Below, one piece after another: positions 5,945-30,131 of a stretch of 64,000 nucleotides of DNA. How positions within the stretch are numbered: position 1 is the first letter of the stretch; each line of letters opens with the position of its first letter. The DNA is from Escherichia phage APCEc01. Location: the sequence record NC_029091.1; one strand, 5' to 3'. Below the pieces are notes generated by a model that did no database searches, was not told the DNA's origin, and saw only the letters and a list, made by a program, of their open reading frames with translations. A program made the translations under genes and the position numbers.

Positions 5945-6289
5945 ATGAAAGGTAATATTTATCTGGTAGTTCATGATTTAACGTTTTATTTTAATGAACA
6001 GGATACAGTTATTTCCGACCGGTTGATTAATTCGTTATATCAACACGCTGATTACGTTTATTTCCAAAATGAATTTGGCCATTGGAAGTTTCTTAAAAAC
6101 CGTTCCGGGTTAACTAGTTTTGAATACTTTGACCGTAAAGACCTTTTAAACGAAATTCCATTACAACATCGGTTCCAGAAACGCGAATCACTATACTATT
6201 GTCGTCATATACCAAATGCTGAATGTGTTTATGAAGCGATTAATCTATGGCGTCGGCGTCGAGAGCAAATTGATGATATGCCAAAATAA
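5945..6289 (+). CDS. hypothetical protein
   Basis: ATG 5945 after GAGG, just downstream of tRNA-Arg; 114 aa. Track start 5897 lies inside the tRNA. Confidence 0.45.
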   Translation: MKGNIYLVVHDLTFYFNEQDTVISDRLINSLYQHADYVYFQNEFGHWKFLKNRSGLTSFEYFDRKDLLNEIPLQHRFQKRESLYYCRHIPNAECVYEAINLWRRRREQIDDMPK

Positions 6290-6457
6290 GAAGCCGGGTC
6301 GCTACCGGCAAGTCGTCGGACTGATGTTCCCTGAGTAAGGACTGGTCTTAATAAATCTTTACGATTTGTTAATATCCCCTTACATCACAGCAGAAACGGC
6401 GCACAGAATTATCGATTCGAGGAAATATCTTTGTCGTAAGCCGAGTAGCGTTTTTGA

Positions 6458-6549
6458 CGGAACGTTCGGATATGGTCGAGATATGGCCTTTTAAAAATAT
6501 TGAGTAGCGTCAACTGCTTAATAACCGGGTTCGAATCCCGGCGTTTCGT
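6458..6549 (+). ncRNA. tRNA-like element (possible degenerate tRNA or small stable RNA)
   Basis: Perfect T arm CCGGG-TTCGAAT-CCCGG followed by CGTTTCG that can pair with CGGAACG at 6458; D and anticodon arms do not fold canonically; lies in a 370-bp ORF-free stretch ending in a terminator. Confidence 0.25.
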
Positions 6550-6600
6550 ACAAACACTTGCCTTAGCAGGTGGAACCCCGACAAGGTTGCCGCAAGGCTT

Positions 6601-6630
6601 AGCCCCTTCCGAAAGGTCGGGGCTTTTTGG
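6601..6630 (+). terminator. rho-independent terminator
   Basis: AGCCCC-TTCCGAAAGGTC-GGGGCT hairpin with GAAA tetraloop core, then TTTTTGG. Confidence 0.7.
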
Positions 6631-6673
6631 CATAATAATAAATAGATAAGTTAATTAACTTAGGAAAAGCAAC

Positions 6674-7138
6674 ATGAAATCATACGCTGAATTTTTGACT
6701 GAACAATCTAGTTCAGATGTAAAAGCCGCTGCGATTGCAGCAATTCAAGCAGGTAAATATTCTTACAAAGACGCCTCTGATGAAGAACGTTTCCGTTTTA
6801 TTAGAGATTTTAAAGCCGAAGGTTTTACTAATGCTAATACTGTTAGCCGAGTTTTTAAAAGCCTAGCTGCATCAGGTGAATTGTTCCAGAAAGCTACAGG
6901 TAAAGCACCTGCGCCAAAAACAGACCCTAAAGCAGCTCAAGAAAAAAATATCGCCAAAGGAATTATTTCTAAGTATGAAGCAATTCTTAAAGAGCTTTTA
7001 GTAATCAAAACAGAAGGCCAGAAACTGGCACGAGCACATAGCTTCAAAGATAATCCTCACGCTCATAGCCTTGAGTATGTTGAAGATATCCAAAAACTTA
7101 TTAAAGACCGTATCTGGTCTGCTAAACAAATTAAATAA
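6674..7138 (+). CDS. internal-protein-like protein with capsid targeting sequence
   Basis: 154 aa; N-terminus MKSYAEFLTEQ. Confidence 0.5.
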   Translation: MKSYAEFLTEQSSSDVKAAAIAAIQAGKYSYKDASDEERFRFIRDFKAEGFTNANTVSRVFKSLAASGELFQKATGKAPAPKTDPKAAQEKNIAKGIISKYEAILKELLVIKTEGQKLARAHSFKDNPHAHSLEYVEDIQKLIKDRIWSAKQIK

Positions 7139-7261: not shown

Positions 7262-7765
7262 ATGAGTCTTTACACTGAACTGAATAAAAAATCTGAAGAA
7301 TCTGCTGAAACTATTTTTAAAAACGTGCAAAAGCGTATTTTGGAAAAGATGTACGATGCAGCATCTAAAGGTGAAAAATCTTGCCGGTTTCCGATGAGGT
7401 GTTCTTCTGATTTATGCGCAAATACTATTGAATGGCTGGAAAGTGAAGGTCTTACGGTAGAGAAAAACCCGGCGACTTCTATTGACGGCGAATCATATAT
7501 TAGTATTTCTTGGGATAAATCAAGGGTAGAAGAGAAAGATGGTGATTGGGTTGTAGATGTTAAAACTTCTGATGGTGGACGTTCTGTTGAAGTTTCAGCT
7601 GTAGTTAAAGGCACCCACGAACAAAGGACTTGGGGTTGGGGTGGTGAAGAAAAAGAAATTGTTCTTAGTGTGATTGCCAGGTCAACTAGTAATAAAATTG
7701 CACAAAGCATCATTGACGCTGCAATTGCTGAAGCAGAAAAAATTTGCAAAATTAAAAATAAATGA
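7262..7765 (+). CDS. hypothetical protein
   Basis: 167 aa; AGAGGA RBS; antisense ORF 7270..7779 judged spurious. Confidence 0.5.
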   Translation: MSLYTELNKKSEESAETIFKNVQKRILEKMYDAASKGEKSCRFPMRCSSDLCANTIEWLESEGLTVEKNPATSIDGESYISISWDKSRVEEKDGDWVVDVKTSDGGRSVEVSAVVKGTHEQRTWGWGGEEKEIVLSVIARSTSNKIAQSIIDAAIAEAEKICKIKNK

Positions 7766-7824: not shown

Positions 7825-7989
7825 ATGACTACTTTAATTATTTGGTTCGATGAAAATGAAGAAACATACTGTGTGAATATTGGTGAAAGTCCAATGCCTG
7901 AATTTGAATCCTCGGATAAAAACTCTGTTGTATCTTGGGCTGAAGGTTATAAAGCAGCTAAAGGTGACGTTGAAATAATTTACATCTAA
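7825..7989 (+). CDS. hypothetical small protein
   Basis: ATG 7825 after GAGGAG; 54 aa (MTTLIIWFDENEE...). Confidence 0.4.
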   Translation: MTTLIIWFDENEETYCVNIGESPMPEFESSDKNSVVSWAEGYKAAKGDVEIIYI

Positions 7990-8020
7990 GTAAGTTTATG
8001 TTATAGTAATCACATCAAAT
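7979..8020 (+). promoter_or_regulatory. early promoter
   Basis: TTTACA at 7979, TATAGT at 8003 (18-nt spacer). Confidence 0.45.
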
Positions 8021-8035
8021 CAAGAGGAAAATAAA

Positions 8036-8263
8036 ATGGCTAAAGTTAGTATTGATGTCGTTGATTATGAATACACCGAAGAAGTTATTCGCAACCGACA
8101 CCCTGAAGTTCGTATCGATTCAGTCCAAGATTCCAAGTTCTGGACAACTGAGCTTAATCTGAGTGGTCCTTATGAAGCTGTTAAGAAGTTCATGGTTGAA
8201 GAATACTGCGAAGGCATGCACCCCGAAGACGCCAAGTTTTATGTCAATTTGATTAAAAAATAA
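8036..8263 (+). CDS. hypothetical protein
   Basis: 75 aa acidic protein; AAGAGGAAA RBS. Confidence 0.45.
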   Translation: MAKVSIDVVDYEYTEEVIRNRHPEVRIDSVQDSKFWTTELNLSGPYEAVKKFMVEEYCEGMHPEDAKFYVNLIKK

Positions 8264-8333: not shown

Positions 8334-8927
8334 ATGAACACACTGAAGAAACTTGTTGAATTCATCCGCACTAAACTTGGTACTGCTATGGCTAAAAATC
8401 TGACTGTCGAAGAACAGTATAACGCAGCTGCAGATAAGTTGATTACCCAAATCAAAGAACTAAAAACGGCTTCTGTTAAATCTATTAATGAAGAAAAACG
8501 TATTCGCGAACTTGTTAATGAAAAGAACAAACAAGCCGCTTCTAAGGAACGTGAAATTCGTAAGCTCTTGGCTGAAGGACAAGATGTTACCATGCATGCT
8601 AAGCTTGGTCTTCTGTATCGTCGAACTGCCGAACAACTTAATACAAAGGCTGACGGGTATGCCGCTATGCGAATTGAAATTGCTCGTAAGGTGGTTGAAC
8701 TTGATGATGCTCGTCAGAATCTGGCAATCAAACTCGAATACATTCGTGAAACTCGAGCAGCCAATGCCCTTGGTATCTCTACGGCTGATGATGTAATTGA
8801 AATCGCTGCACTGACTAAGGTTGATATCGAAGACACTCTGACTCGTGTTGAAACGTTCAATGGCACTCCAGCCGGTGTCGAAACCACTTCTGCTGATGTA
8901 CAAGAATATATTAACTCTTTGAAATAA
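8334..8927 (+). CDS. coiled-coil protein, function unknown
   Basis: ATG 8334; 197 aa, heptad-rich. Confidence 0.5.
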
Positions 8928-8935
8928 AATAATAC

Positions 8936-8958
8936 GGAGGACTCCGGTCCTCCTTTTG
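8936..8958 (+). terminator. rho-independent terminator
   Basis: GGAGGAC-TCCG-GTCCTCC hairpin then TTTTGG. Confidence 0.7.
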
Positions 8959-8976
8959 GATAATAAAGGAGTTAAC

Positions 8977-9579
8977 ATGCGAAACCAAAATAATGATATT
9001 GACTCAATGTTCGAAGAGTTCCGAGATAAGGTAAATCCACCTACGTCTTTAGTTGATTCATTACGATATGTTGCAACCGGACGTAAATGGTACTGGTCGT
9101 CTTCTTATGAGACTACTGAGAAAACGGCTAGCCATAGCAGAAAATCTTTATTAGCCCCAGGTATTATGATTCATGATATCGGAGCTATTGCTAAACTAGT
9201 TGCAGACCATGATATTAGATTCACCGATTTCGTTGCTCCTACATGGTCTGTTTGTTGTTTAAACACTGAATGGGAATATATCAGCGAACGCTCTAAAGAT
9301 TATTATGGTTTTAGAGATAAGCTTCTGAGGTCTAACATGTTTTATATTGATACAGAAGTTCTGGTCAATAATAAAAAATACTACTTCACTTTAATCGTCG
9401 ATTCTGAAACTATGTATGAAGGCGGGCCTTTGCTTAAGAGAGTTGATGCTTTAAGTGCTATTGATGCGCTTTATGAAACTATGGTTGTTAGTCCTAATTT
9501 CACTAACAATTTAATCCTTGAGCAATTTATTATGGAATGTAGAGAATATGTCAAAGCCAACCCTGTACATGCCAATTAA
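8977..9579 (+). CDS. hypothetical protein
   Basis: ATG 8977 after AAGGAG; 200 aa; C-terminal region contains EQFIMECR junction motif. Confidence 0.5.
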   Translation: MRNQNNDIDSMFEEFRDKVNPPTSLVDSLRYVATGRKWYWSSSYETTEKTASHSRKSLLAPGIMIHDIGAIAKLVADHDIRFTDFVAPTWSVCCLNTEWEYISERSKDYYGFRDKLLRSNMFYIDTEVLVNNKKYYFTLIVDSETMYEGGPLLKRVDALSAIDALYETMVVSPNFTNNLILEQFIMECREYVKANPVHAN

Positions 9580-9943
9580 GCCCTGGGCATACGAATACAA
9601 GCGTAAATTAATCCCAAATGAAGTACTATTTGGCCCTATTTTAGCTTTAGCATTTTTAATCTTTATGATTATAGGAGCTGTTTTAGATTCCAATAAAGTT
9701 ATATCGTCTGATGCAGCATTTTCATTAATGTTCGTCGCACCACTTATTGTACCGTTTTTATTAATGCCTATTAATTGGGTAGGATATTGGCACCAAGGCC
9801 GTCATCACAGAGCTCGAGTAAGAGAATGGAAAGTTCAGTGCGCAAAAGCCCAAGCTCAGTATGATGAAGCTGTTAAAAAGTATGAATATGAAGAAGCTAT
9901 GGAATTCGTTAAGGAAATAAGATGCAAAAGCCTCAACTCTTAA
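9548..9943 (+). CDS. membrane protein
   Basis: Two hydrophobic segments; start uncertain (ATG 9548 or 9569), overlaps upstream gene end. Confidence 0.4.
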   Translation: MSKPTLYMPIKPWAYEYKRKLIPNEVLFGPILALAFLIFMIIGAVLDSNKVISSDAAFSLMFVAPLIVPFLLMPINWVGYWHQGRHHRARVREWKVQCAKAQAQYDEAVKKYEYEEAMEFVKEIRCKSLNS

Positions 9944-10281
9944 CCGTATGGCCTTCTCTTGGTGAGAACATTCTAATTTTTATTATGAGTATTGGCATGG
10001 GATTTGCCTTTGGATTAGTTGGATTTCTTATTGACGGCGTTGTGTTAGGATTTATAGGGAACACTGGTGGATTCACAGACCAATGGCAGGACTTACGGTA
10101 TACCCAAGCCTTTGCATCCATCGCATCATTTTGTACTGTAGTCTATTTTTACTACGATTTTATAAACCACAACAAGAAAAATAAAAAGGTTTACGCTTCT
10201 CAAATGATTAGTTATAATGAACTCCTAGCTAGACGTGAAAATGAAACAATCGAAAACTTTATTAAGGAATGTAGAAAATGA
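9922..10281 (+). CDS. membrane protein with C-terminal ENFIKECR motif
   Basis: 119 aa, two predicted TM helices; ends ...ETIENFIKECRK overlapping next start (ATGA). Confidence 0.5.
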   Translation: MQKPQLLTVWPSLGENILIFIMSIGMGFAFGLVGFLIDGVVLGFIGNTGGFTDQWQDLRYTQAFASIASFCTVVYFYYDFINHNKKNKKVYASQMISYNELLARRENETIENFIKECRK

Positions 10282-10583
10282 GTAAGATTATTGAAATTAA
10301 AGTACCAGAGTTTAATGATGCCAAATCCGCTTCAGATGCAATTTATAAACTTCTGAATCAAGCTGAACGTATCGAAGAAGAAGCAACAAAGATCGCAGAC
10401 CAATATGCCGTATCATTTTCTGTAGGTGATTATGGTAGCGGTCGTACTTATTATCCTAAGGGTGAAATCGTATCCCAGTGGATGAAAGATGAAATTGAAA
10501 ATAATGGCGGCGATGTTAAGCGTGAAGGTAATGGATACGTTATTACTGAAGGTGCTTGGGTTTCGTCTTCTGCGTTGTGCTAA
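10278..10583 (+). CDS. small protein, paralog family member 1 (C-terminal GAWVSSSALC)
   Basis: 101 aa; first of three tandem ORFs with related C-termini. Confidence 0.5.
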   Translation: MSKIIEIKVPEFNDAKSASDAIYKLLNQAERIEEEATKIADQYAVSFSVGDYGSGRTYYPKGEIVSQWMKDEIENNGGDVKREGNGYVITEGAWVSSSALC

Positions 10584-10592
10584 GGAATCATT

Positions 10593-10865
10593 ATGTCTAA
10601 AGAACAAACCGAACTGGCTGAAGCTGTAGCAAAAATCTATGCAGCTATTGAGGCTGCCAAAGAAATTGCTGATAAACAAAACACAACATTCAACTTGTAC
10701 CCAGCTTATGGTATGGGTGGAACCTATCATTCACCCGGACATCTTAAAGCCGATCTTGAACGTTGTACAAAAAACGGCTATGCTGAATGGGCTGACGTTT
10801 ACCAATACGACTACAACCTGAGCCTCGAAACTGGTGGTTGGGTCGCATCTTCTCACACTTGCTAA
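10593..10865 (+). CDS. small protein, paralog family member 2 (C-terminal GGWVASSHTC)
   Basis: 90 aa; each of the three is preceded by CTAAGGAA RBS. Confidence 0.5.
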   Translation: MSKEQTELAEAVAKIYAAIEAAKEIADKQNTTFNLYPAYGMGGTYHSPGHLKADLERCTKNGYAEWADVYQYDYNLSLETGGWVASSHTC

Positions 10866-10874
10866 GGAAACAAT

Positions 10875-11072
10875 ATGTCTCGTGAATTAGATTGTGCTGT
10901 ACGTACGGCAGTAGCTGCTCTGGAAAACCTGTTCCAAATTGCAACAGAAGAACGCGAAGAAGTTACATTATGGATTGAAGATAACGCAGGTCTGAATCTC
11001 CAGGACGCGATCTCATTATCCCACAATAGTATCACTGTTCAAGGCTGGGTATCATCTAGTTATTCTTGCTAA
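10875..11072 (+). CDS. small protein, paralog family member 3 (C-terminal GWVSSSYSC)
   Basis: 65 aa. Confidence 0.5.
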   Translation: MSRELDCAVRTAVAALENLFQIATEEREEVTLWIEDNAGLNLQDAISLSHNSITVQGWVSSSYSC

Positions 11073-11076
11073 AACA

Positions 11077-11115
11077 GTTTACAACAAGATAGGGCTATGT
11101 TATAGTAGTCCTATC
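11077..11115 (+). promoter_or_regulatory. early promoter (PeSL type)
   Basis: GTTTAC at 11077, TATAGT at 11101, inverted repeat AGGGCTAT / ATAGTCCT. Confidence 0.6.
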
Positions 11116-11134
11116 AAAACAAATGGAGTCCACA

Positions 11135-11374
11135 ATGATTTATTACGAAAGTATCGGAACCAAAGTGGTTAGTAAAACCATTACTCGTGAAAAGTTTGCA
11201 AAGATATTCGATATGCGTTATAAAAAATCTGAACACAAAGGCATCCGATTCGAAGATGCGCACTGTACAATTTGCCCTTATAATGAAGACATAAACGGTA
11301 CAATCGTTCCATTGGTAGAGGCTTCACATGATGACCTCTGGGATGAATATAATATCGCATGTCGTGAAATTTAA
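11135..11374 (+). CDS. hypothetical protein
   Basis: ATG 11135 after GGAG; 79 aa. Confidence 0.45.
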   Translation: MIYYESIGTKVVSKTITREKFAKIFDMRYKKSEHKGIRFEDAHCTICPYNEDINGTIVPLVEASHDDLWDEYNIACREI

Positions 11375-11402
11375 GTTAATGAATTAATCCGAGGAAAATA
11401 TT

Positions 11403-12359
11403 ATGATGTTAGTTATTGGTTCTCGTGCACTTCACTATCACGGTCTTATTGATTCTAGCGCTATTAAAAATAGTGATTGGGACTTTATTGCGGACCAAGG
11501 TTCTTGGAATGCATTCAAAAATCAAATGATGGGTGTATATGTTCACCAAGATAACCCTGATGTCCAAGTTTTCAAATGCTTCCATAATGGACGCGAAACT
11601 CATTTTGAAGCATATATTGTTCCGGCAATCACTAATGTCCGTGAATTAGTCGGTGAACTCACTCCTGAAGATTTCACGTCTTCTTATGACCTTTTAAAAT
11701 ACGCCAAGAAAAATTTGACTAAAGACCGTTTGAACGGGTTTTACTGGGCAACTCCTGAGATATGTCTTGCAATTAAGATGTCTCATCGTTTCAAGAAAAA
11801 TAATCCATTCTTTTTAAAGACTATGAACCATATTCAGTATCTTCGTGGTAAAGGTGTTACACTGAACGATGAACTTACTGAAATTATGCTGAAACGCCAG
11901 AAAGAAACCTTGAATTATGCTCACCCAGTTCTTGACACTTCTAAAAGTGCGTTCTTTAAAGATGACATCTATACATATGACCATGATACTATTCATGAAG
12001 CCATTGCACTAACAGACCGTCCAGCGTATACATTTTATATGAAAGATGGTTCTGAAGTCATGACCTCACGCGAGAAGTTCGAATCATTACCAGAAATGGT
12101 CAAATTGGCCGGCGTATACGAAGAATCATGTGTACTAGCGTTAGAACGTTCTCAGATTCCTAATAACTTTGAAATCCATCCACGTGATAGTTTTATGATG
12201 GCCCTTGAAAAGGTCTGTACATCAATCACATCAGGATGGTTCCGTGAGTTCGCTTGGGAAAATTATAGCAAAGTAGTAAGTATGTACCAAAGCTTAGGAC
12301 ACGACGATTACGTCAAGCGTTTCAAACAAAACTTTCATATGGTAAAACCTTTCAAATAA
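11403..12359 (+). CDS. hypothetical protein (318 aa)
   Basis: Long ORF with GAGGAAAATA RBS; no family recognised. Confidence 0.5.
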   Translation: MMLVIGSRALHYHGLIDSSAIKNSDWDFIADQGSWNAFKNQMMGVYVHQDNPDVQVFKCFHNGRETHFEAYIVPAITNVRELVGELTPEDFTSSYDLLKYAKKNLTKDRLNGFYWATPEICLAIKMSHRFKKNNPFFLKTMNHIQYLRGKGVTLNDELTEIMLKRQKETLNYAHPVLDTSKSAFFKDDIYTYDHDTIHEAIALTDRPAYTFYMKDGSEVMTSREKFESLPEMVKLAGVYEESCVLALERSQIPNNFEIHPRDSFMMALEKVCTSITSGWFREFAWENYSKVVSMYQSLGHDDYVKRFKQNFHMVKPFK

Positions 12360-12371
12360 TTTCACAAAACA

Positions 12372-12410
12372 GTTTACAAGGTCTGTAGTTGTTGATACTA
12401 TAGACCTATC
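12372..12410 (+). promoter_or_regulatory. early promoter (PeSL type)
   Basis: GTTTAC at 12372, TACTAT at 12396, TAGACCTATCAAAACAA box. Confidence 0.6.
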
Positions 12411-12439
12411 AAAACAAATGAGTGAATGGAGATATAAAA

Positions 12440-12640
12440 ATGACTACTTTGAATAAACGTTTCGGTAAAGCTAAACCTGGTTGTGCAGCAGAACGTCGTT
12501 ATGTTTTCGCTCAGTTAGAAGATGTAGAGTATCAGATTAATCAAGTTCACATTACTGGCATCGAGCCTATGTGTGGCCTTGAAGCTCTTCGTGAAGTTCG
12601 TGATGGGTATCGTCGTGACATCGAAGAAATGTCAAAATAA
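12440..12640 (+). CDS. hypothetical small protein
   Basis: ATG 12440 after GGAG; 66 aa. Confidence 0.45.
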   Translation: MTTLNKRFGKAKPGCAAERRYVFAQLEDVEYQINQVHITGIEPMCGLEALREVRDGYRRDIEEMSK

Positions 12641-12641
12641 G

Positions 12642-12680
12642 TGTACAAACTGATAGGACTATGTTATAGTAGTCCTATTA
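12642..12680 (+). promoter_or_regulatory. early promoter (PeSL type)
   Basis: TGTACA -35-like, TATAGT at 12665, inverted repeat TAGGACTA / TAGTCCTA. Confidence 0.55.
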
Positions 12681-12698
12681 AAACATGAGGAGAATATT

Positions 12699-13004
12699 AT
12701 GAAATTAGGCGAAACCAACCGAATTGGTCTTTTAACAATATTTGTATCACTTTTTTACGCAGCTCTTTCTGTTGCAGTATTACAAAAGGCTTACAGTATG
12801 GATGGTGTTCCTGGTTTTGTATTCTTATCGCCGTTTTTGCTATTCGTTGGAGCATTGTTATTATATGCCACGACTAGTTTCGACCATAACGTCTGGGTCA
12901 ATTATAAATGTAAATTGTCTGAAGAAGAACACGCAGAAGCTCGTAAAAAAGCTATTGAATCTACCAATCTAGAAAATTTCATTAAAGAATGTCGAGGAAA
13001 ATAA
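12699..13004 (+). CDS. membrane protein with C-terminal ENFIKECR motif
   Basis: 101 aa, two hydrophobic helices; ends ...NLENFIKECRGK. Confidence 0.5.
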   Translation: MKLGETNRIGLLTIFVSLFYAALSVAVLQKAYSMDGVPGFVFLSPFLLFVGALLLYATTSFDHNVWVNYKCKLSEEEHAEARKKAIESTNLENFIKECRGK

Positions 13005-13005
13005 T

Positions 13006-13692
13006 ATGAATAGTTCTAAAGTGTTTAATAGTCAAGCTCGTGCAGTAGGTGGTTTTGCTCATGCGATTAAAAATGACCAGATTAAAAACGAGCCTATGTT
13101 CTTTAATTGCGATTTGAATTTTGCTTTTGATAACGGCGGTCCAATTACTCGTAGCTTTATCCAAAATCTCCCTGACGATTGGAAAGACTCGGATGTAGTA
13201 TTTGATTCACGAGTCCATATGCTGATGCCTGGTTGGTATCCTGCTATTCCTGGTTATCACCATGATGACGTACCACGCCCGGATATTCCGGTTGGTCAAC
13301 ATTTTATTACTGCAGGACAACCTGACTATGACAATCCTCGCTATTTGTCTGAACATATTCTTGGTCTTGTTAACGCTGATGTGTGTCCTACTCATTTTGC
13401 AACAGGAACTGCAGAGTTCAGTCAGATTCCTGATGGCGAACTTATCTATCGCCAGTGGCACAAAGAAGTCCTCGAAAAAATCGAAAAAGGCGAACTAGAG
13501 AAATGGGAAGCTCCAGATCGTACTCTTCTTCAGTTTGATTGGCAAACATGGCACACTGGTTCTCGTGCAATTAGTAACGGATGGCGTTGGTTCGGACGTG
13601 TATCTCGTAATACAGACCGAGTTAAAAAGATTACCAATGAAATTCGTGTCAATGCCCAAGTTTATCTGGAATTCCCTATGGAAGGATGGTAA
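13006..13692 (+). CDS. hypothetical protein (weak hint of 2OG-Fe(II) oxygenase-like His/Asp motifs)
   Basis: 228 aa; contains HHDD and WHTGSR...GRVSR; assignment tentative. Confidence 0.45.
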   Translation: MNSSKVFNSQARAVGGFAHAIKNDQIKNEPMFFNCDLNFAFDNGGPITRSFIQNLPDDWKDSDVVFDSRVHMLMPGWYPAIPGYHHDDVPRPDIPVGQHFITAGQPDYDNPRYLSEHILGLVNADVCPTHFATGTAEFSQIPDGELIYRQWHKEVLEKIEKGELEKWEAPDRTLLQFDWQTWHTGSRAISNGWRWFGRVSRNTDRVKKITNEIRVNAQVYLEFPMEGW

Positions 13693-14183
13693 TGATTAAC
13701 AAAACATATTGGTCTAATATAGACGATGGCAACGAAGGTATTTCATACTATTCAGTAGATTGGACAGGATGTCCATCCTACTTAGTGAAACATATTTGCC
13801 AAGAATTTAAAATCGACCAGCCAGCAGGTATTATCGTGAACAGATACATTAATGGATATCAACCTATCGATGAAGTAATACGAACAACTCAAGCTGAGCT
13901 TGAAAAGTTTTTCAATAAGTGCCAATGGATAACAGGATGGATTATATTTGTACCGTCGGTATGGTTTTTTAGTACTAAGGTGAGTTCTTTCGGTTTTGTT
14001 GATATTATTGCTATCTTATTAGCATCTGCTATCGTAAGTATAATTGGCGGTATAATTGGTGGAGGTACTGTAGGCATCATTATTAATCTTGTTAAAAGTA
14101 GTTTACAAGAACGTAAAGACAAGATAAAGGCCAAGAATAATGAAGTTGAACGTTTTATTACCGAATGCAGGAATTTGAGATGA
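13686..14183 (+). CDS. membrane protein with C-terminal ERFITECR motif
   Basis: 165 aa; C-terminal TM segments and Gly-rich stretch; ends ...NNEVERFITECRNLR. Confidence 0.5.
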   Translation: MVMINKTYWSNIDDGNEGISYYSVDWTGCPSYLVKHICQEFKIDQPAGIIVNRYINGYQPIDEVIRTTQAELEKFFNKCQWITGWIIFVPSVWFFSTKVSSFGFVDIIAILLASAIVSIIGGIIGGGTVGIIINLVKSSLQERKDKIKAKNNEVERFITECRNLR

Positions 14184-14416
14184 GTATAGCAATTTACATT
14201 AAATCAGAATCATGTGATAGTTATCTGTACACATATGATAAAGATGTGTCAGAAGAAAAAATCAAAGACGACCTTAATATGGACCTTGATATGTTCTGTC
14301 CTATTGCAGATTACAAACTTGCGGTCTCTAATAGTGAAAGTCCATCTAAAGAAACGCGCATTGAAGAATTTATGTCCGAATTAATGGCCAAATCATGGGA
14401 CCGAGATGATGAGTAA
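14180..14416 (+). CDS. hypothetical acidic protein
   Basis: ATG 14180 overlapping upstream stop; 78 aa. Confidence 0.45.
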   Translation: MSIAIYIKSESCDSYLYTYDKDVSEEKIKDDLNMDLDMFCPIADYKLAVSNSESPSKETRIEEFMSELMAKSWDRDDE

Positions 14417-14864
14417 GAAAAATAAAGTGAAAGAACTATCAGCCGGTATTATTTTCCTTACCGAAGATAAAGAATTATTCATGGGGCGTGTAACTGGTTC
14501 TCGTCCTAAAGGTGCATTAGCTCATCGGTGGGATATTCCTAAAGGCCGTGTCGAACCTGGCGAATCTCCTATTGAAGCCGCTATTCGTGAATGCGAAGAA
14601 GAAACTGGGTTTACACAATATGACCCTGCCTTCCTGAAAGACCTAGGTGAACATCATTACTCAGACAATAAGAATATTCATCTGTTCCTATATACCATCC
14701 CTGTAGAGCACGAGCAATTCAGAAACAGTGTTTGTAATTCCTATCATACATTCCCAGACGGACGACAGATTCCTGAATTTGATGCATTCGCTTTAATTAA
14801 ACCTTCTCAATGGGAATATGTAATGGGTAAATCATTATATAAGGTGCTCACTACACTCCTATAA
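14406..14864 (+). CDS. nudE: Nudix hydrolase (NudE-like)
   Basis: Nudix box GRVEPGESPIEAAIRECEEETG; immediately upstream of e as T4 e.1/nudE. Confidence 0.7.
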   Translation: MMSKKNKVKELSAGIIFLTEDKELFMGRVTGSRPKGALAHRWDIPKGRVEPGESPIEAAIRECEEETGFTQYDPAFLKDLGEHHYSDNKNIHLFLYTIPVEHEQFRNSVCNSYHTFPDGRQIPEFDAFALIKPSQWEYVMGKSLYKVLTTLL

Positions 14865-14871
14865 GTAATAA

Positions 14872-14897
14872 ATACCTCCTATAAACGTGGGAGGTAT
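14872..14897 (+). promoter_or_regulatory. stem-loop sequestering the lysozyme Shine-Dalgarno; possible late promoter
   Basis: ATACCTCC (14872-14879) pairs with GGAGGTAT (14890-14897), which contains the GGAGG RBS of gene e; TAATAAATA at 14866-14874 resembles late TATAAATA. Confidence 0.5.
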
Positions 14898-14898
14898 T

Positions 14899-15387
14899 AT
14901 GAATATATTTGAAATGCTTCGTAATGACGAAGGTCTTAGACTGACTTTATACAAAGACACTGAAGGCTTTTGGACGATTGGCATAGGCCATTTAGTAACA
15001 AAGAACCCGTCTTTAGCCGTAGCTAAAGCTGAACTTGACAGAATGATCGGTCGTAAATGCAACGGTACAATTACCCTTGATGAGGCTGAAAAGCTATTTA
15101 ATGAAGACGTTGATAAAGCCGTCCGCGGAATCTTGGGTAATGCTAAACTTAAACCGGTATATGATTCTTTAGACGCAGTTCGTCGGTGTGCATTGGTCAA
15201 TATGGTCTTCCAAATGGGTGTAGCAGGAGTCGCCGGTTTTACTAATTCTCTTCGTATGCTTCAACAGAAACGTTGGGATGAAGCGGCAGTAAATCTAGCC
15301 CAATCTAAATGGTATCGTCAGACACCTAATCGCGCGAAACGCGTAATCTCAACATTTAAAACAGGAACTTGGAAAGCGTATATATGA
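14899..15387 (+). CDS. e: lysozyme (endolysin, T4 e-like)
   Basis: [32 protein letters not shown]... near-identical in pattern to T4 lysozyme; 162 aa. Confidence 0.92.
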
Positions 15388-15700: not shown

Positions 15701-15723
15701 TCATCAACTACTTGGAGGAAATT

Positions 15724-16137
15724 ATGACTCGTATCAATTTAACACTTGTTTCTGAACTGTCCGACCAACATCTTATGGCTGAGTATCGTGAATTACCACG
15801 CGTATTTGGTGCAGTCCGTAAACATGTTCAAAACGGTAAACGTGTAAAGGATTTTAAAATCTCTCCAACATTTATCTTAGGCACAGGTCACGTAACATTC
15901 TTTTACGACAAACTCGAATTTTTACGTTTACGTCAAATCGAGCTAATCGCTGAATGCTTGAAACGTGGTTTCAAAATCAAGGACACGACTGTCCAGGATA
16001 TTTCCGACATTCCTGTAGAATTTCGTAATAATTACGTCCCGTCCGAAGCGTCCATTGCGATAAGTCAAGCACGCTTAGATGAAAAAATTGCTCAACGTCC
16101 GACTTGGTACAAATACTATGGTAAATCAATTTACTAA
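15724..16137 (+). CDS. denV: endonuclease V (pyrimidine dimer DNA glycosylase, DenV)
   Basis: ATG 15724 after GGAGG; [34 protein letters not shown]... matches T4 DenV; 137 aa. Confidence 0.9.
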
Positions 16138-29195: not shown

Positions 29196-30131
29196 ATGGC
29201 TTTTATTACACGTAGAGAACTTATCAAAGAATTTACCTCGAACGCATATACTCCAGGACCTAATCCTATCCGTATGCCTGTAAAGACTCCTGAAGAGATT
29301 GAGGAAATCTGTTCGTATTATGGGATTAATTCTCGTAAGTTTACTCAATTTGAATGCGTTACTAACACACCCGTTAAAGAGTTCATTAAAAATGGCGAGT
29401 TCAGCCGTTTATTGGCCAAACAGAAACTTCGTAATTTTTGTATTGGCGGTGAAGGACAATATTTCGCTAAGCAGTTCCGGAATAACCTTAACAATCTGAT
29501 GGCCATTGCTTCTCGTATTCGTCCTCAAGCAATTAACATGAAACATTTGAAATATACTTACGATAAGTTGGAAATCATGGTTATCAGTGAGAACGAGTTC
29601 ACTCTCACGTATAAACCTAAGAATGATAACGTTGCTCGTGTATTCCACCAAGCGTTGGAAGTGTTAGGTGATAATATTCACCAGATTAAAGCAATTTATT
29701 CTCGTGAGCTTAATATTATCAACCCTATCAAGAATAAGGGCCATATCGCTATCCAGGCTCGTGTATCTATTGGTAAAAAGGTTCCTGCGCCATGGTGGCA
29801 CAAAGACTCTGAATACTATCAAAATCTTAAAAAGGAAAATGCAACGTTCGAAGCGTCAATTACTGCAACCCCAATTGGCCATGCTGAAGTTCTAGGTGCA
29901 TATTCTACTGCTCCATCTATACACATTTCACCGTCGACTAAACTGGAAATCTCTAACGGTCTTCTTCCTGCCGAAGATTACCATTATAATCAAATCAAGG
30001 CCACTGTAGACCAACTATCCGTTGAACTTGACAAAGCACAAGCTAAGCTTCGTGATGCTCAACAAGTAGTTACCAAGCTCCAGTTGCAGTACTCTAAACT
30101 TTTTAACGCAATGAATGCGTTAAAATCATAA
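29196..30131 (+). CDS. hypothetical protein with C-terminal coiled coil
   Basis: 311 aa. Confidence 0.5.
   Translation: MAFITRRELIKEFTSNAYTPGPNPIRMPVKTPEEIEEICSYYGINSRKFTQFECVTNTPVKEFIKNGEFSRLLAKQKLRNFCIGGEGQYFAKQFRNNLNNLMAIASRIRPQAINMKHLKYTYDKLEIMVISENEFTLTYKPKNDNVARVFHQALEVLGDNIHQIKAIYSRELNIINPIKNKGHIAIQARVSIGKKVPAPWWHKDSEYYQNLKKENATFEASITATPIGHAEVLGAYSTAPSIHISPSTKLEISNGLLPAEDYHYNQIKATVDQLSVELDKAQAKLRDAQQVVTKLQLQYSKLFNAMNALKS

Follow-up and report, generated by a model that had tools for sequence, protein, structure and literature searches.

A conserved C-terminal peptide on neighbouring genes of T4-like phages and its overlap with the translation signals of the next gene

Why should several neighbouring genes of a T4-like phage end in almost the same residues, FIxECR, at the very place where translation of the next gene begins? 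The question is raised by a window of 64,000 nucleotides (nt), the whole stretch that we analysed, from Escherichia phage APCEc01 (NC_029091.1), a T4-like phage of the genus Mosigvirus and of the RB69 type. The genes concerned are the homologues of T4 e.5, e.4, e.3 and e.2 and a further gene, absent from T4, which we call g3. They lie within positions 8900-14900, where Shigella phage JK42 matches the window at 99% identity and many Escherichia and Shigella phages match it at 97-99%. A preliminary description of the window had noticed four such gene ends and regarded them as a module conserved as DNA, a portable junction or regulatory target rather than the mark of a shared protein function. 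The feature is real, but the mechanism proposed for it was largely wrong: the repeated block encodes a short C-terminal peptide on which strong purifying selection acts at the protein level, and, judging from the sequence, its codons are dual-coded with ordinary signals of translational coupling.

The copies are too many to be accidental. In a six-frame translation of the 64 kb, the pattern F[ILVM]xEC[RK] occurs exactly four times, at 9526-9543, 10258-10275, 12978-12995 and 14154-14171, always on the + strand (as are all features of the window given below), in a real open reading frame (ORF) and with the stop 1-11 codons later. Codon-block shuffles predict 0.15 occurrences and shuffles of residues within ORFs predict 0.036, so the fourfold repetition is borne out, and chance in AT-rich DNA is ruled out as the source of the copies. 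At the DNA level, the block TTTATTAAGGAATGTAGA has three matches with no more than three mismatches, against 0.15 expected, and the fourth copy has four mismatches. To call these blocks nearly identical, as was done at first, overstates their likeness: pairwise they agree at 12-17 of 18 nt, their flanks are at background (7-16 of 30), and codon positions 1 and 2 are each invariant in five of the six columns, position 3 in two of the six. A fifth, rearranged copy at the end of e.4 (9905-9925) had been missed. Relaxing the pattern to F[IV]xx[CVIL][RK] adds merely a doubtful ORF of 59 amino acids at 29320 and the C-terminus of T4 rIII, which is about the level of chance. The T4 RIII protein (locus L085, ~130,785) ends with AVRHFVVTLK before its stop, fitting [hydrophobic]-x-x-F-V-x-x-L-K where the chance count in the segment is 0.24, and this fit is probably a coincidence. 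Within the 64-kb window and the 120 kb of T4 that were scanned (NC_000866 was used for all T4 comparisons), the motif is confined to the e.5-e.2 cluster.

Is it the nucleotides or the residues that are being kept? We fetched 80 related loci, using as an anchor the 228-amino acid neighbour of g3 (13006-13692), and widened the motif to [F/W]-[I/V]-x-x-C-[R/K] close to a stop, which yielded 72 distinct DNA contexts in T4-like phages of Enterobacterales. Across these contexts the residues F, I/V, C and R/K are retained, yet every synonymous codon is used: phenylalanine is encoded by TTT (49) or TTC (17), isoleucine by ATT, ATC and ATA, cysteine by TGT (42) or TGC (30), and arginine by AGA (20), CGT (20), CGC (8), CGA (7), AGG (7) and CGG (1). 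In the e.2 family, 26 sequences with a mean identity of 32% and a minimum of 13%, the tail C and R are the only columns that are at least 95% conserved. The same degree of conservation is found in 10 columns of the e.5 family, among them the tail F, C and R, in 10 columns of a family of 95-amino acid proteins, among them the tail F, I, C and R, and in 10-11 columns of the e.3 family, where the tail residues are likewise included; overall, the tail F, C and R are invariant within families of ~32-37% mean identity. The 66 unique canonical tails contain the cysteine and the arginine or lysine in 100% of cases, and they extend the consensus to [L/F/I/V]-x-x-F-[I/V]-x-x-C-[R/K], placed 1-15 residues ahead of the stop. 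Since the tail residues stay fixed in fast-evolving proteins while their codons vary, it is the peptide that is under selection. Alignment of the junctions and of the related phages has therefore given conservation at the amino acid level, the result that the preliminary description had itself named as the one that would count against it.

How, then, is the start of the next gene accommodated? The downstream ATG lies 1-31 nt past the Arg codon, a few calls of the downstream start being uncertain, and the position of the Shine-Dalgarno (SD) sequence tracks this ATG, not the motif. If the ATG follows within 4 nt, the SD core falls inside the two variable codons of the motif (x2x3) in 14 of 20 contexts; the free codons that form it are AAG GAA, GAG GAA, AAA GGA/GGG or GAG GAT, and they usually encode K-E, E-E or K-G. 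With the ATG at least 7 nt away, the core is found in x2x3 in none of 34 contexts (Fisher p = 1e-8, and 1e-5 after collapsing to sequence classes). At 7-10 nt the SD starts with the Arg codon, in these cases usually AGA or AGG, or immediately behind it, and at greater distances the motif carries no SD. In other genera the E of FIxECR is replaced, as in FIKGCR, FINSCR, FIKQCR, FIKHCR and WIKGCR, and because the SD occupies the free codons and other genera differ there, this glutamate is largely a by-product of the SD. The consensus of the prohead-protease site is I/L-x-E, and FIKE in the window fits it; such a site was nevertheless rejected as the identity of the tail, as other genera do not keep the Glu (FIKGCR, FINSCR, FIKQCR) and the carriers are early membrane proteins.

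The window itself illustrates both arrangements. Stop and start overlap or abut at all five junctions, as ATGA twice, as TAA-x-ATG at the end of g3, and with the ATGs of e.4 and e.3 inside the upstream gene; an SD-like purine run stands 5-10 nt upstream of the ATG and inside the upstream ORF at the ends of e.4, e.3, g3 and e.2, and the e.5/e.4 junction gives a weak match. The e.5 homologue (8977-9579) encodes a soluble protein of 200 amino acids with no hydrophobic segment, 47% identical to T4 e.5 and belonging to PHROG 2607 and, as precomputed, to Pfam family PF26876. Its copy of the motif, L-x-x-F-I-M-E-C-R within LILEQFIMECR, occupies 9517-9543. The gene had been taken to end near 9547, but position 9548, 4 nt past the motif, is the start codon of e.4, and e.5 continues for 11 further codons to its stop at 9579. 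The e.4 homologue (9548-9943), between e.5 and e.3, encodes 131 amino acids with two hydrophobic stretches and overlaps e.5 by 32 nt; its start is backed by a PHROG 2604 alignment that begins with the first residue and by an N-terminus, MSKPxLYxPxKP, that is conserved with T4, and 26 nt around the e.5/e.4 overlap are identical in T4 and the window. In its rearranged tail EFVKEIRC (EFVKEIRCKSLNS, 9905-9925), e.3 has its SD in AAGGAA at 9911-9916 and its ATG, at 9922, within the codons AGA TGC; the swapped R-C order, found in the window and in T4, brings this ATG exactly 5 nt past the AAGGAA that encodes K-E.

The three remaining junctions follow the same layout. The e.3 homologue (9922-10281; 119 amino acids with a hydrophobic hairpin region) has the tail IENFIKECRK, its motif at 10249-10275, and AAGGAA at 10264-10269 serves as SD for the following gene, whose start forms an ATGA overlap at 10278-10281. 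In a relative that is 94-99% identical to the window, e.3 is mostly lost, and residues 90-119, including the tail, are still detectable (locus L003, ~7440-7545). The gene g3 (12699-13004) encodes 101 amino acids with two hydrophobic stretches, belongs to PHROG 9798 and ends in LENFIKECRGK (motif 12969-12995); the next SD, CGAGGAA, lies at 12993-12999, followed by the TAA at 13002-13004 and the next ATG at 13006. The full-length e.2 homologue (13692-14183), which bears the name e.2 in RB69 and belongs to PHROG 2203, encodes 163 amino acids with an N-terminal soluble domain, two hydrophobic stretches and the tail VERFITECRNLR (motif 14145-14171); here the following gene has AGGAA at 14169-14173 as its SD and overlaps e.2 in the ATGA at 14180-14183. 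The view that these gene ends double as the initiation region of the following gene is supported by overlaps of the ATGA and TAATG type and SDs built from tail codons. The block was further said to contain the ribosome binding site (RBS) and start codon, which is true of the RBS at 10264-10269 only: at g3 and e.2 the RBS starts with the Arg codon and extends beyond the block, and every start codon lies outside the 18 nt.

Could the peptide nonetheless be a by-product of a block that acts as DNA or RNA, whether as a portable junction for recombination or as a regulatory target such as a RegA operator or a RegB site? In every copy the block stands immediately before the following start codon, the in-block AAGGAA is the SD at e.3 and e.4, T4 and the window are identical over 26 nt at the e.5/e.4 overlap, and positions 10278-13691, an insertion in the window relative to T4, end on both sides exactly at gene starts. 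Recombination at junctions could plausibly have spread the tail to unrelated genes. Against this stand residues that do not change although each of their synonymous codons occurs, Arg codons two or three positions apart among them, the third positions that vary even within the window, the motif-ATG distance of 1-31 nt, and the SD that is outside the motif in all 34 contexts with the ATG at least 7 nt away. The right end of the insertion, moreover, is without a motif copy. The codon data have already largely refuted a DNA- or RNA-level module, and we consider it very improbable; the portable junction or regulatory target first proposed in place of a shared protein function is also contradicted by the absence of GGAG and of an RNA fold.

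The searches for specific elements gave the same answer. The RegB site was taken, following the regB note of the T4 record, as GGAG in the initiation region of an early mRNA. No GGAG was found within -30 to +60 of the four motifs or at the e.4/e.3 junction, and a RegB target was rejected on this ground; GGAG is present in SDs that follow early promoters, for example near 11125 and 12685. A sequence-specific RegA site is disfavoured because the codons of the block vary. No RNA fold is shared among the five junctions, where four of the RNAs fold no better than shuffled controls (z = +0.04, +1.2, +1.65 and +0.8) and the fifth has z = -1.8, and Rfam gave no match at the junctions and two sub-threshold chance hits elsewhere in 8500-15000.

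A known type of repeat does occur close by. Promoter early stem-loop (PeSL) cassettes of ~100 bp have been shown to mediate shuffling in T4-type phages (PMC2839356, PMC4122927). Like them, the FIxxCR block is a sequence repeated at gene boundaries in a hyperplastic region and ending in an SD and an ATG; unlike them, it is neither intergenic nor a sigma-70-type early promoter with a stem-loop but 18 nt of coding sequence, and this similarity over 18 nt contrasts with the ~100 bp of the cassettes (PMC2839356). At the motif copies there is no promoter pair and no terminator-like stem, the similarity is confined to 18-22 nt and the folds are unstable. PeSL-like repeats are found nearby at 7979-8038, 11071-11137, 12366-12420 and 12635-12701, each unit having an early promoter GTTTACA ... 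TATAGT with its -10 region in the inverted repeat TAGGACTATGTTATAGTAGTCCTA, followed by a GGAG-type SD.

Another way in which the junction itself might explain the tail is that the nascent peptide acts in cis in the ribosome, pausing termination and favouring re-initiation at the overlapping start. Each tail-bearing gene is directly followed by a coupled gene, as this would lead one to expect, but an arrest peptide that acts in the tunnel needs a fixed register, and the motif is found 1-15 codons from the stop and 1-31 nt from the next ATG. With the register so variable, a role of this kind is scarcely to be believed. The junctions resemble those of ordinary translational coupling, in that all five in the window have the ATGA/TAATG-type layout with the SD within the upstream ORF and formed from tail codons; they differ from it in that ordinary coupling needs no conserved peptide, whereas here the peptide is fixed while SD and ATG shift.

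If selection is on the peptide, which proteins carry it? By blastp, the 84 ORFs that bear the tail form 13 clusters: e.2, e.5, e.3, e.4 in its variant form, g3, a family of 122-amino acid membrane proteins, soluble families of ~95, 170 and 220 amino acids, and four singletons, one of them a fragment of 33 amino acids. With the 200 amino acids of e.5, the soluble carriers are of ~95, 170, 200 and 220 amino acids, and they stand beside several membrane proteins. Between clusters, hhalign places the similarity mostly in the last 10-22 columns; with the tails several pairs reach 80-96% probability, and without them all pairs are at or below 66%, hydrophobic segments being hard to score. By the blastp clusters and the tail-removed hhalign comparison, the same short peptide is thus carried by proteins that are not otherwise detectably homologous, and soluble and membrane carriers have nothing detectable in common beyond the tail. 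Within each of these two classes the picture may differ: the e.5-like soluble proteins are probably distant homologues among themselves, as are, probably, the e.3/e.4-like membrane proteins.

The distribution of the tail is patchy. Two to five motif genes are found in 23 of the 80 related loci, and none in the other 57. The hosts of tail-bearing phages are Escherichia, Shigella, Enterobacter, Kosakonia, Citrobacter, Pectobacterium and Klebsiella, and the carriers include T4, RB69-type and JS10/VR25-type coliphages, Enterobacter phage CIP9, Kosakonia phage 305, Citrobacter phage Merlin, Pectobacterium phage PM2, Klebsiella phages EI and F48 and, probably, Erwinia phage Cronus. Word-index and exhaustive phmmer searches returned close relatives alone (15 matches for e.2, four for e.5 and three for e.3, with two representative clusters for e.5), and by this measure the tail-bearing families appear narrow and fast-evolving. 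In a T4-like phage of ~230 kb that is otherwise without the motif, an e.5-family homologue (locus L010, ~11644; E=4e-6) ends in SSFVNYCIVNVRGSV before its stop, which we read as a partial, degenerate version of the tail.

One account of a shared peptide would be descent. The e.4, e.3, g3 and e.2 genes may be diverged tandem duplicates in which the tail is the best-kept part of an old fold, for instance a helix that packs back on it, with an intramolecular role and with no shared partner or complex. The proteins e.3, e.4 and g3 and the C-terminal half of e.2 do have a similar layout of two hydrophobic stretches, a charged segment and the tail. By hhalign, e.2 and e.3 reach 95.7% over 60 columns, e.3 and the 122-amino acid family 91.9% over 106 columns, and e.5 reaches 93% with the 170-amino acid and L012 soluble families; g3 also weakly matches the e.2 family, PHROG 2203, with E=1.2e-4, and tandem paralogues with conserved ends of their own adjoin at 10278-11072. 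The preliminary description had called three of the carriers otherwise dissimilar membrane proteins. The hydrophobic stretches of e.3, g3 and e.2 do fit a two-helix hairpin, and e.5 is soluble, but the dissimilarity has to be qualified by the weak resemblance of e.2 to e.3 and of g3 to e.2. Descent does not account so readily for the soluble carriers (e.5-like and the 95-amino acid family), whose resemblance to the membrane proteins is no longer detectable without the tail, for a tail conserved far better than any other part of each family, or for phages that have several tail genes or none. We consider an inherited tail with a purely intramolecular role rather unlikely.

What could the peptide do? 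The spacing of its hydrophobic positions (-3, 0, +1, +4) fits one face of an amphipathic helix of 2-3 turns, and AlphaFold2 places both of the tails modelled, those of e.5 and e.2, in a terminal helix, at low confidence. A long coiled coil was rejected, since the lack of conserved hydrophobic positions upstream of -3 argues against it. Because K/R-rich segments follow the second hydrophobic stretch, the positive-inside rule would put the tails of the membrane proteins in the cytoplasm. On these grounds the tail may be a short amphipathic C-terminal helix that serves as a putative shared docking or assembly tag of co-expressed early proteins, a proposal to which we give about even chances. The tails of membrane and soluble proteins would then bind one common partner, or alternatively each other, forming a membrane-associated complex; if they bind each other, soluble e.5 would be held at a membrane complex of e.4, e.3, g3 and e.2. 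In either case, stop/start coupling would help to keep the subunits in proportion.

Such an arrangement has precedents. The gp45 clamp-binding tails of T4 gp43, gp33 and gp55 and the C-terminal tail of SSB are docking tails shared by unrelated proteins. Like these, the FIxxCR tail is a short conserved C-terminal peptide on different folds, kept better than the rest of the protein; it differs in its sequence and in that its carriers are mostly small membrane proteins from adjacent genes.

Several points weigh against a docking tag. Both structure models are of low confidence (pLDDT, the predicted local distance difference test score, is 59 for e.5 and 35 for e.2), and upstream of -3 there are no conserved hydrophobic positions and no continuation as heptads. 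The hhalign scores of e.2 with e.3 and of e.3 with the 122-amino acid family, given above, leave room for distant paralogy, and as some membrane families may be distant paralogues, part of the sharing of the tail may be inheritance. The motif is, furthermore, not strictly fixed, because in the e.4 lineage V, I or S can stand in place of the Cys, which may also be shifted. The variants of this lineage without the canonical Cys are FVKEIRC, FVKESRC, and, ending at the stop, FIKEVRNGTA and FIKNVRRK (window 9905-9925; loci L005, L009 and L016, ~6100-6700; L014 and L025, ~6290).

The cysteine invites a chemical explanation of its own, in which the thiol beside the arginine is reactive, binds metal, as in a layer of cysteines, forms disulfides between tails or is covalently modified. 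Its invariance in the 66 canonical tails, together with Arg/Lys, and the presence of 2-5 tails per phage speak for this, and the Cys, on the hydrophobic face, would point into a helix bundle. The natural variants speak against it: V replaces Cys in FIKEVRNGTA (e.4-like) and FIKNVRRK (122-amino acid family), I in e.4 of the window, S in T4 e.4, and L in FVNSLRK, the end of the e.2-position protein of an Erwinia-type phage. The cytoplasm, where the tails would lie, is also a reducing compartment. Given the V, I, L and S variants, a small hydrophobic side chain fits better than an essential thiol, and we think the chemical explanation improbable.

How might a docking tag have come to sit on unrelated genes? 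Recombination at gene junctions is a reasonable origin, although it cannot explain why the peptide is maintained. Taken together with the docking proposal, it suggests a putative address tag that gathers 3-5 unrelated early proteins, membrane and soluble, on one partner or membrane-associated complex during early infection of Enterobacterales, and that was acquired by junction recombination, since the tail DNA also carries the next RBS. We put this fuller scenario forward tentatively, as a possibility that may well prove wrong.

None of this leads to unfamiliar genes. T4 has e.5, e.4, e.3 and e.2, and the RB69-type phages their homologues, arranged identically ahead of nudE, e and denV; in the window the motif region precedes nudE (14406-14864), the lysozyme gene e (14887-15387) and denV (15712-16137). 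The T4 tails read KFVKECREYVK, which continues further, and, ending at the stop, KFVKESRCKSQS, EFVIDCRKIK and a remnant, NNFITECRKLK; g3 and full-length e.2 are absent or disrupted in T4, unlike in the window. The T4 e.2 gene is annotated with 102 amino acids, and the rest of the full-length gene is still encoded before nudE (T4 ~67,490-67,960, minus strand, locus L002), after two in-frame stops and a stretch in another frame, ending in IEMPWRLRRQQKIFDEKKYAQNLNNFITECRKLK before the stop. On this reading, either T4 e.2 is disrupted or the sequence given in the record contains an error.

Pfam families exist for e.5 (PF26876) and e.2 (PF26896), and the records label e.2-e.5 as hypothetical or predicted membrane proteins only. 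Local Pfam, NCBIfam and PHROG libraries gave no functional name for the tail-bearing proteins, and a PDB sequence search gave no relatives. Foldseek with the e.5 model found uncharacterised T4-like phage proteins, the PDB matches being insignificant (template modelling score ~0.18). The shared tail is undescribed in the literature that was searched in full text by gene names and motif strings, an earlier mention in the T4 genome review being possible. In a clade of T4-like phages, it appears to be a peptide tag that had so far gone unremarked.

The genes that adjoin the tail-bearing ones complete the map. Downstream of e.3, and coupled to it by position, is the gene at 10278-10583, the first of three tandem paralogous small genes (10278-10583, 10593-10865 and 10875-11072), which end in GAWVSSSALC, GGWVASSHTC and QGWVSSSYSC before their stops; the first two have the same junction, TGCTAAGGAAnCAnTATGTCT, with the following gene. 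These WVSSS-type ends are a second conserved C-terminus in the block, unrelated to the FIxxCR tail. Also within the insertion relative to T4, between two PeSL-like promoters, 11403-12359 encodes a protein of 318 amino acids with DUF7277 and DUF7275 domains. The conserved 228-amino acid gene that served as anchor follows g3, and a gene of 78 amino acids (14180-14416) is coupled by position to the end of e.2.

What does the shared tail mean for these phages? The e.2-e.5 block is among the many sets of T4 early genes that have been without a known function for decades, and the tail provides a concrete handle on them: a 10-residue tail peptide, such as TNLENFIKECRGK, could be used as bait for a partner, and the set of tail-bearing genes is a candidate functional unit. 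For annotation, the end of e.5 is corrected, the start of e.4 inside e.5 is supported and T4 e.2 is flagged as disrupted. In the junctions, nature offers a clear case of codons that serve both a conserved peptide and a movable Shine-Dalgarno sequence. If the peptide is indeed an address tag passed between genes at their junctions, it would be a phage version of exon shuffling.

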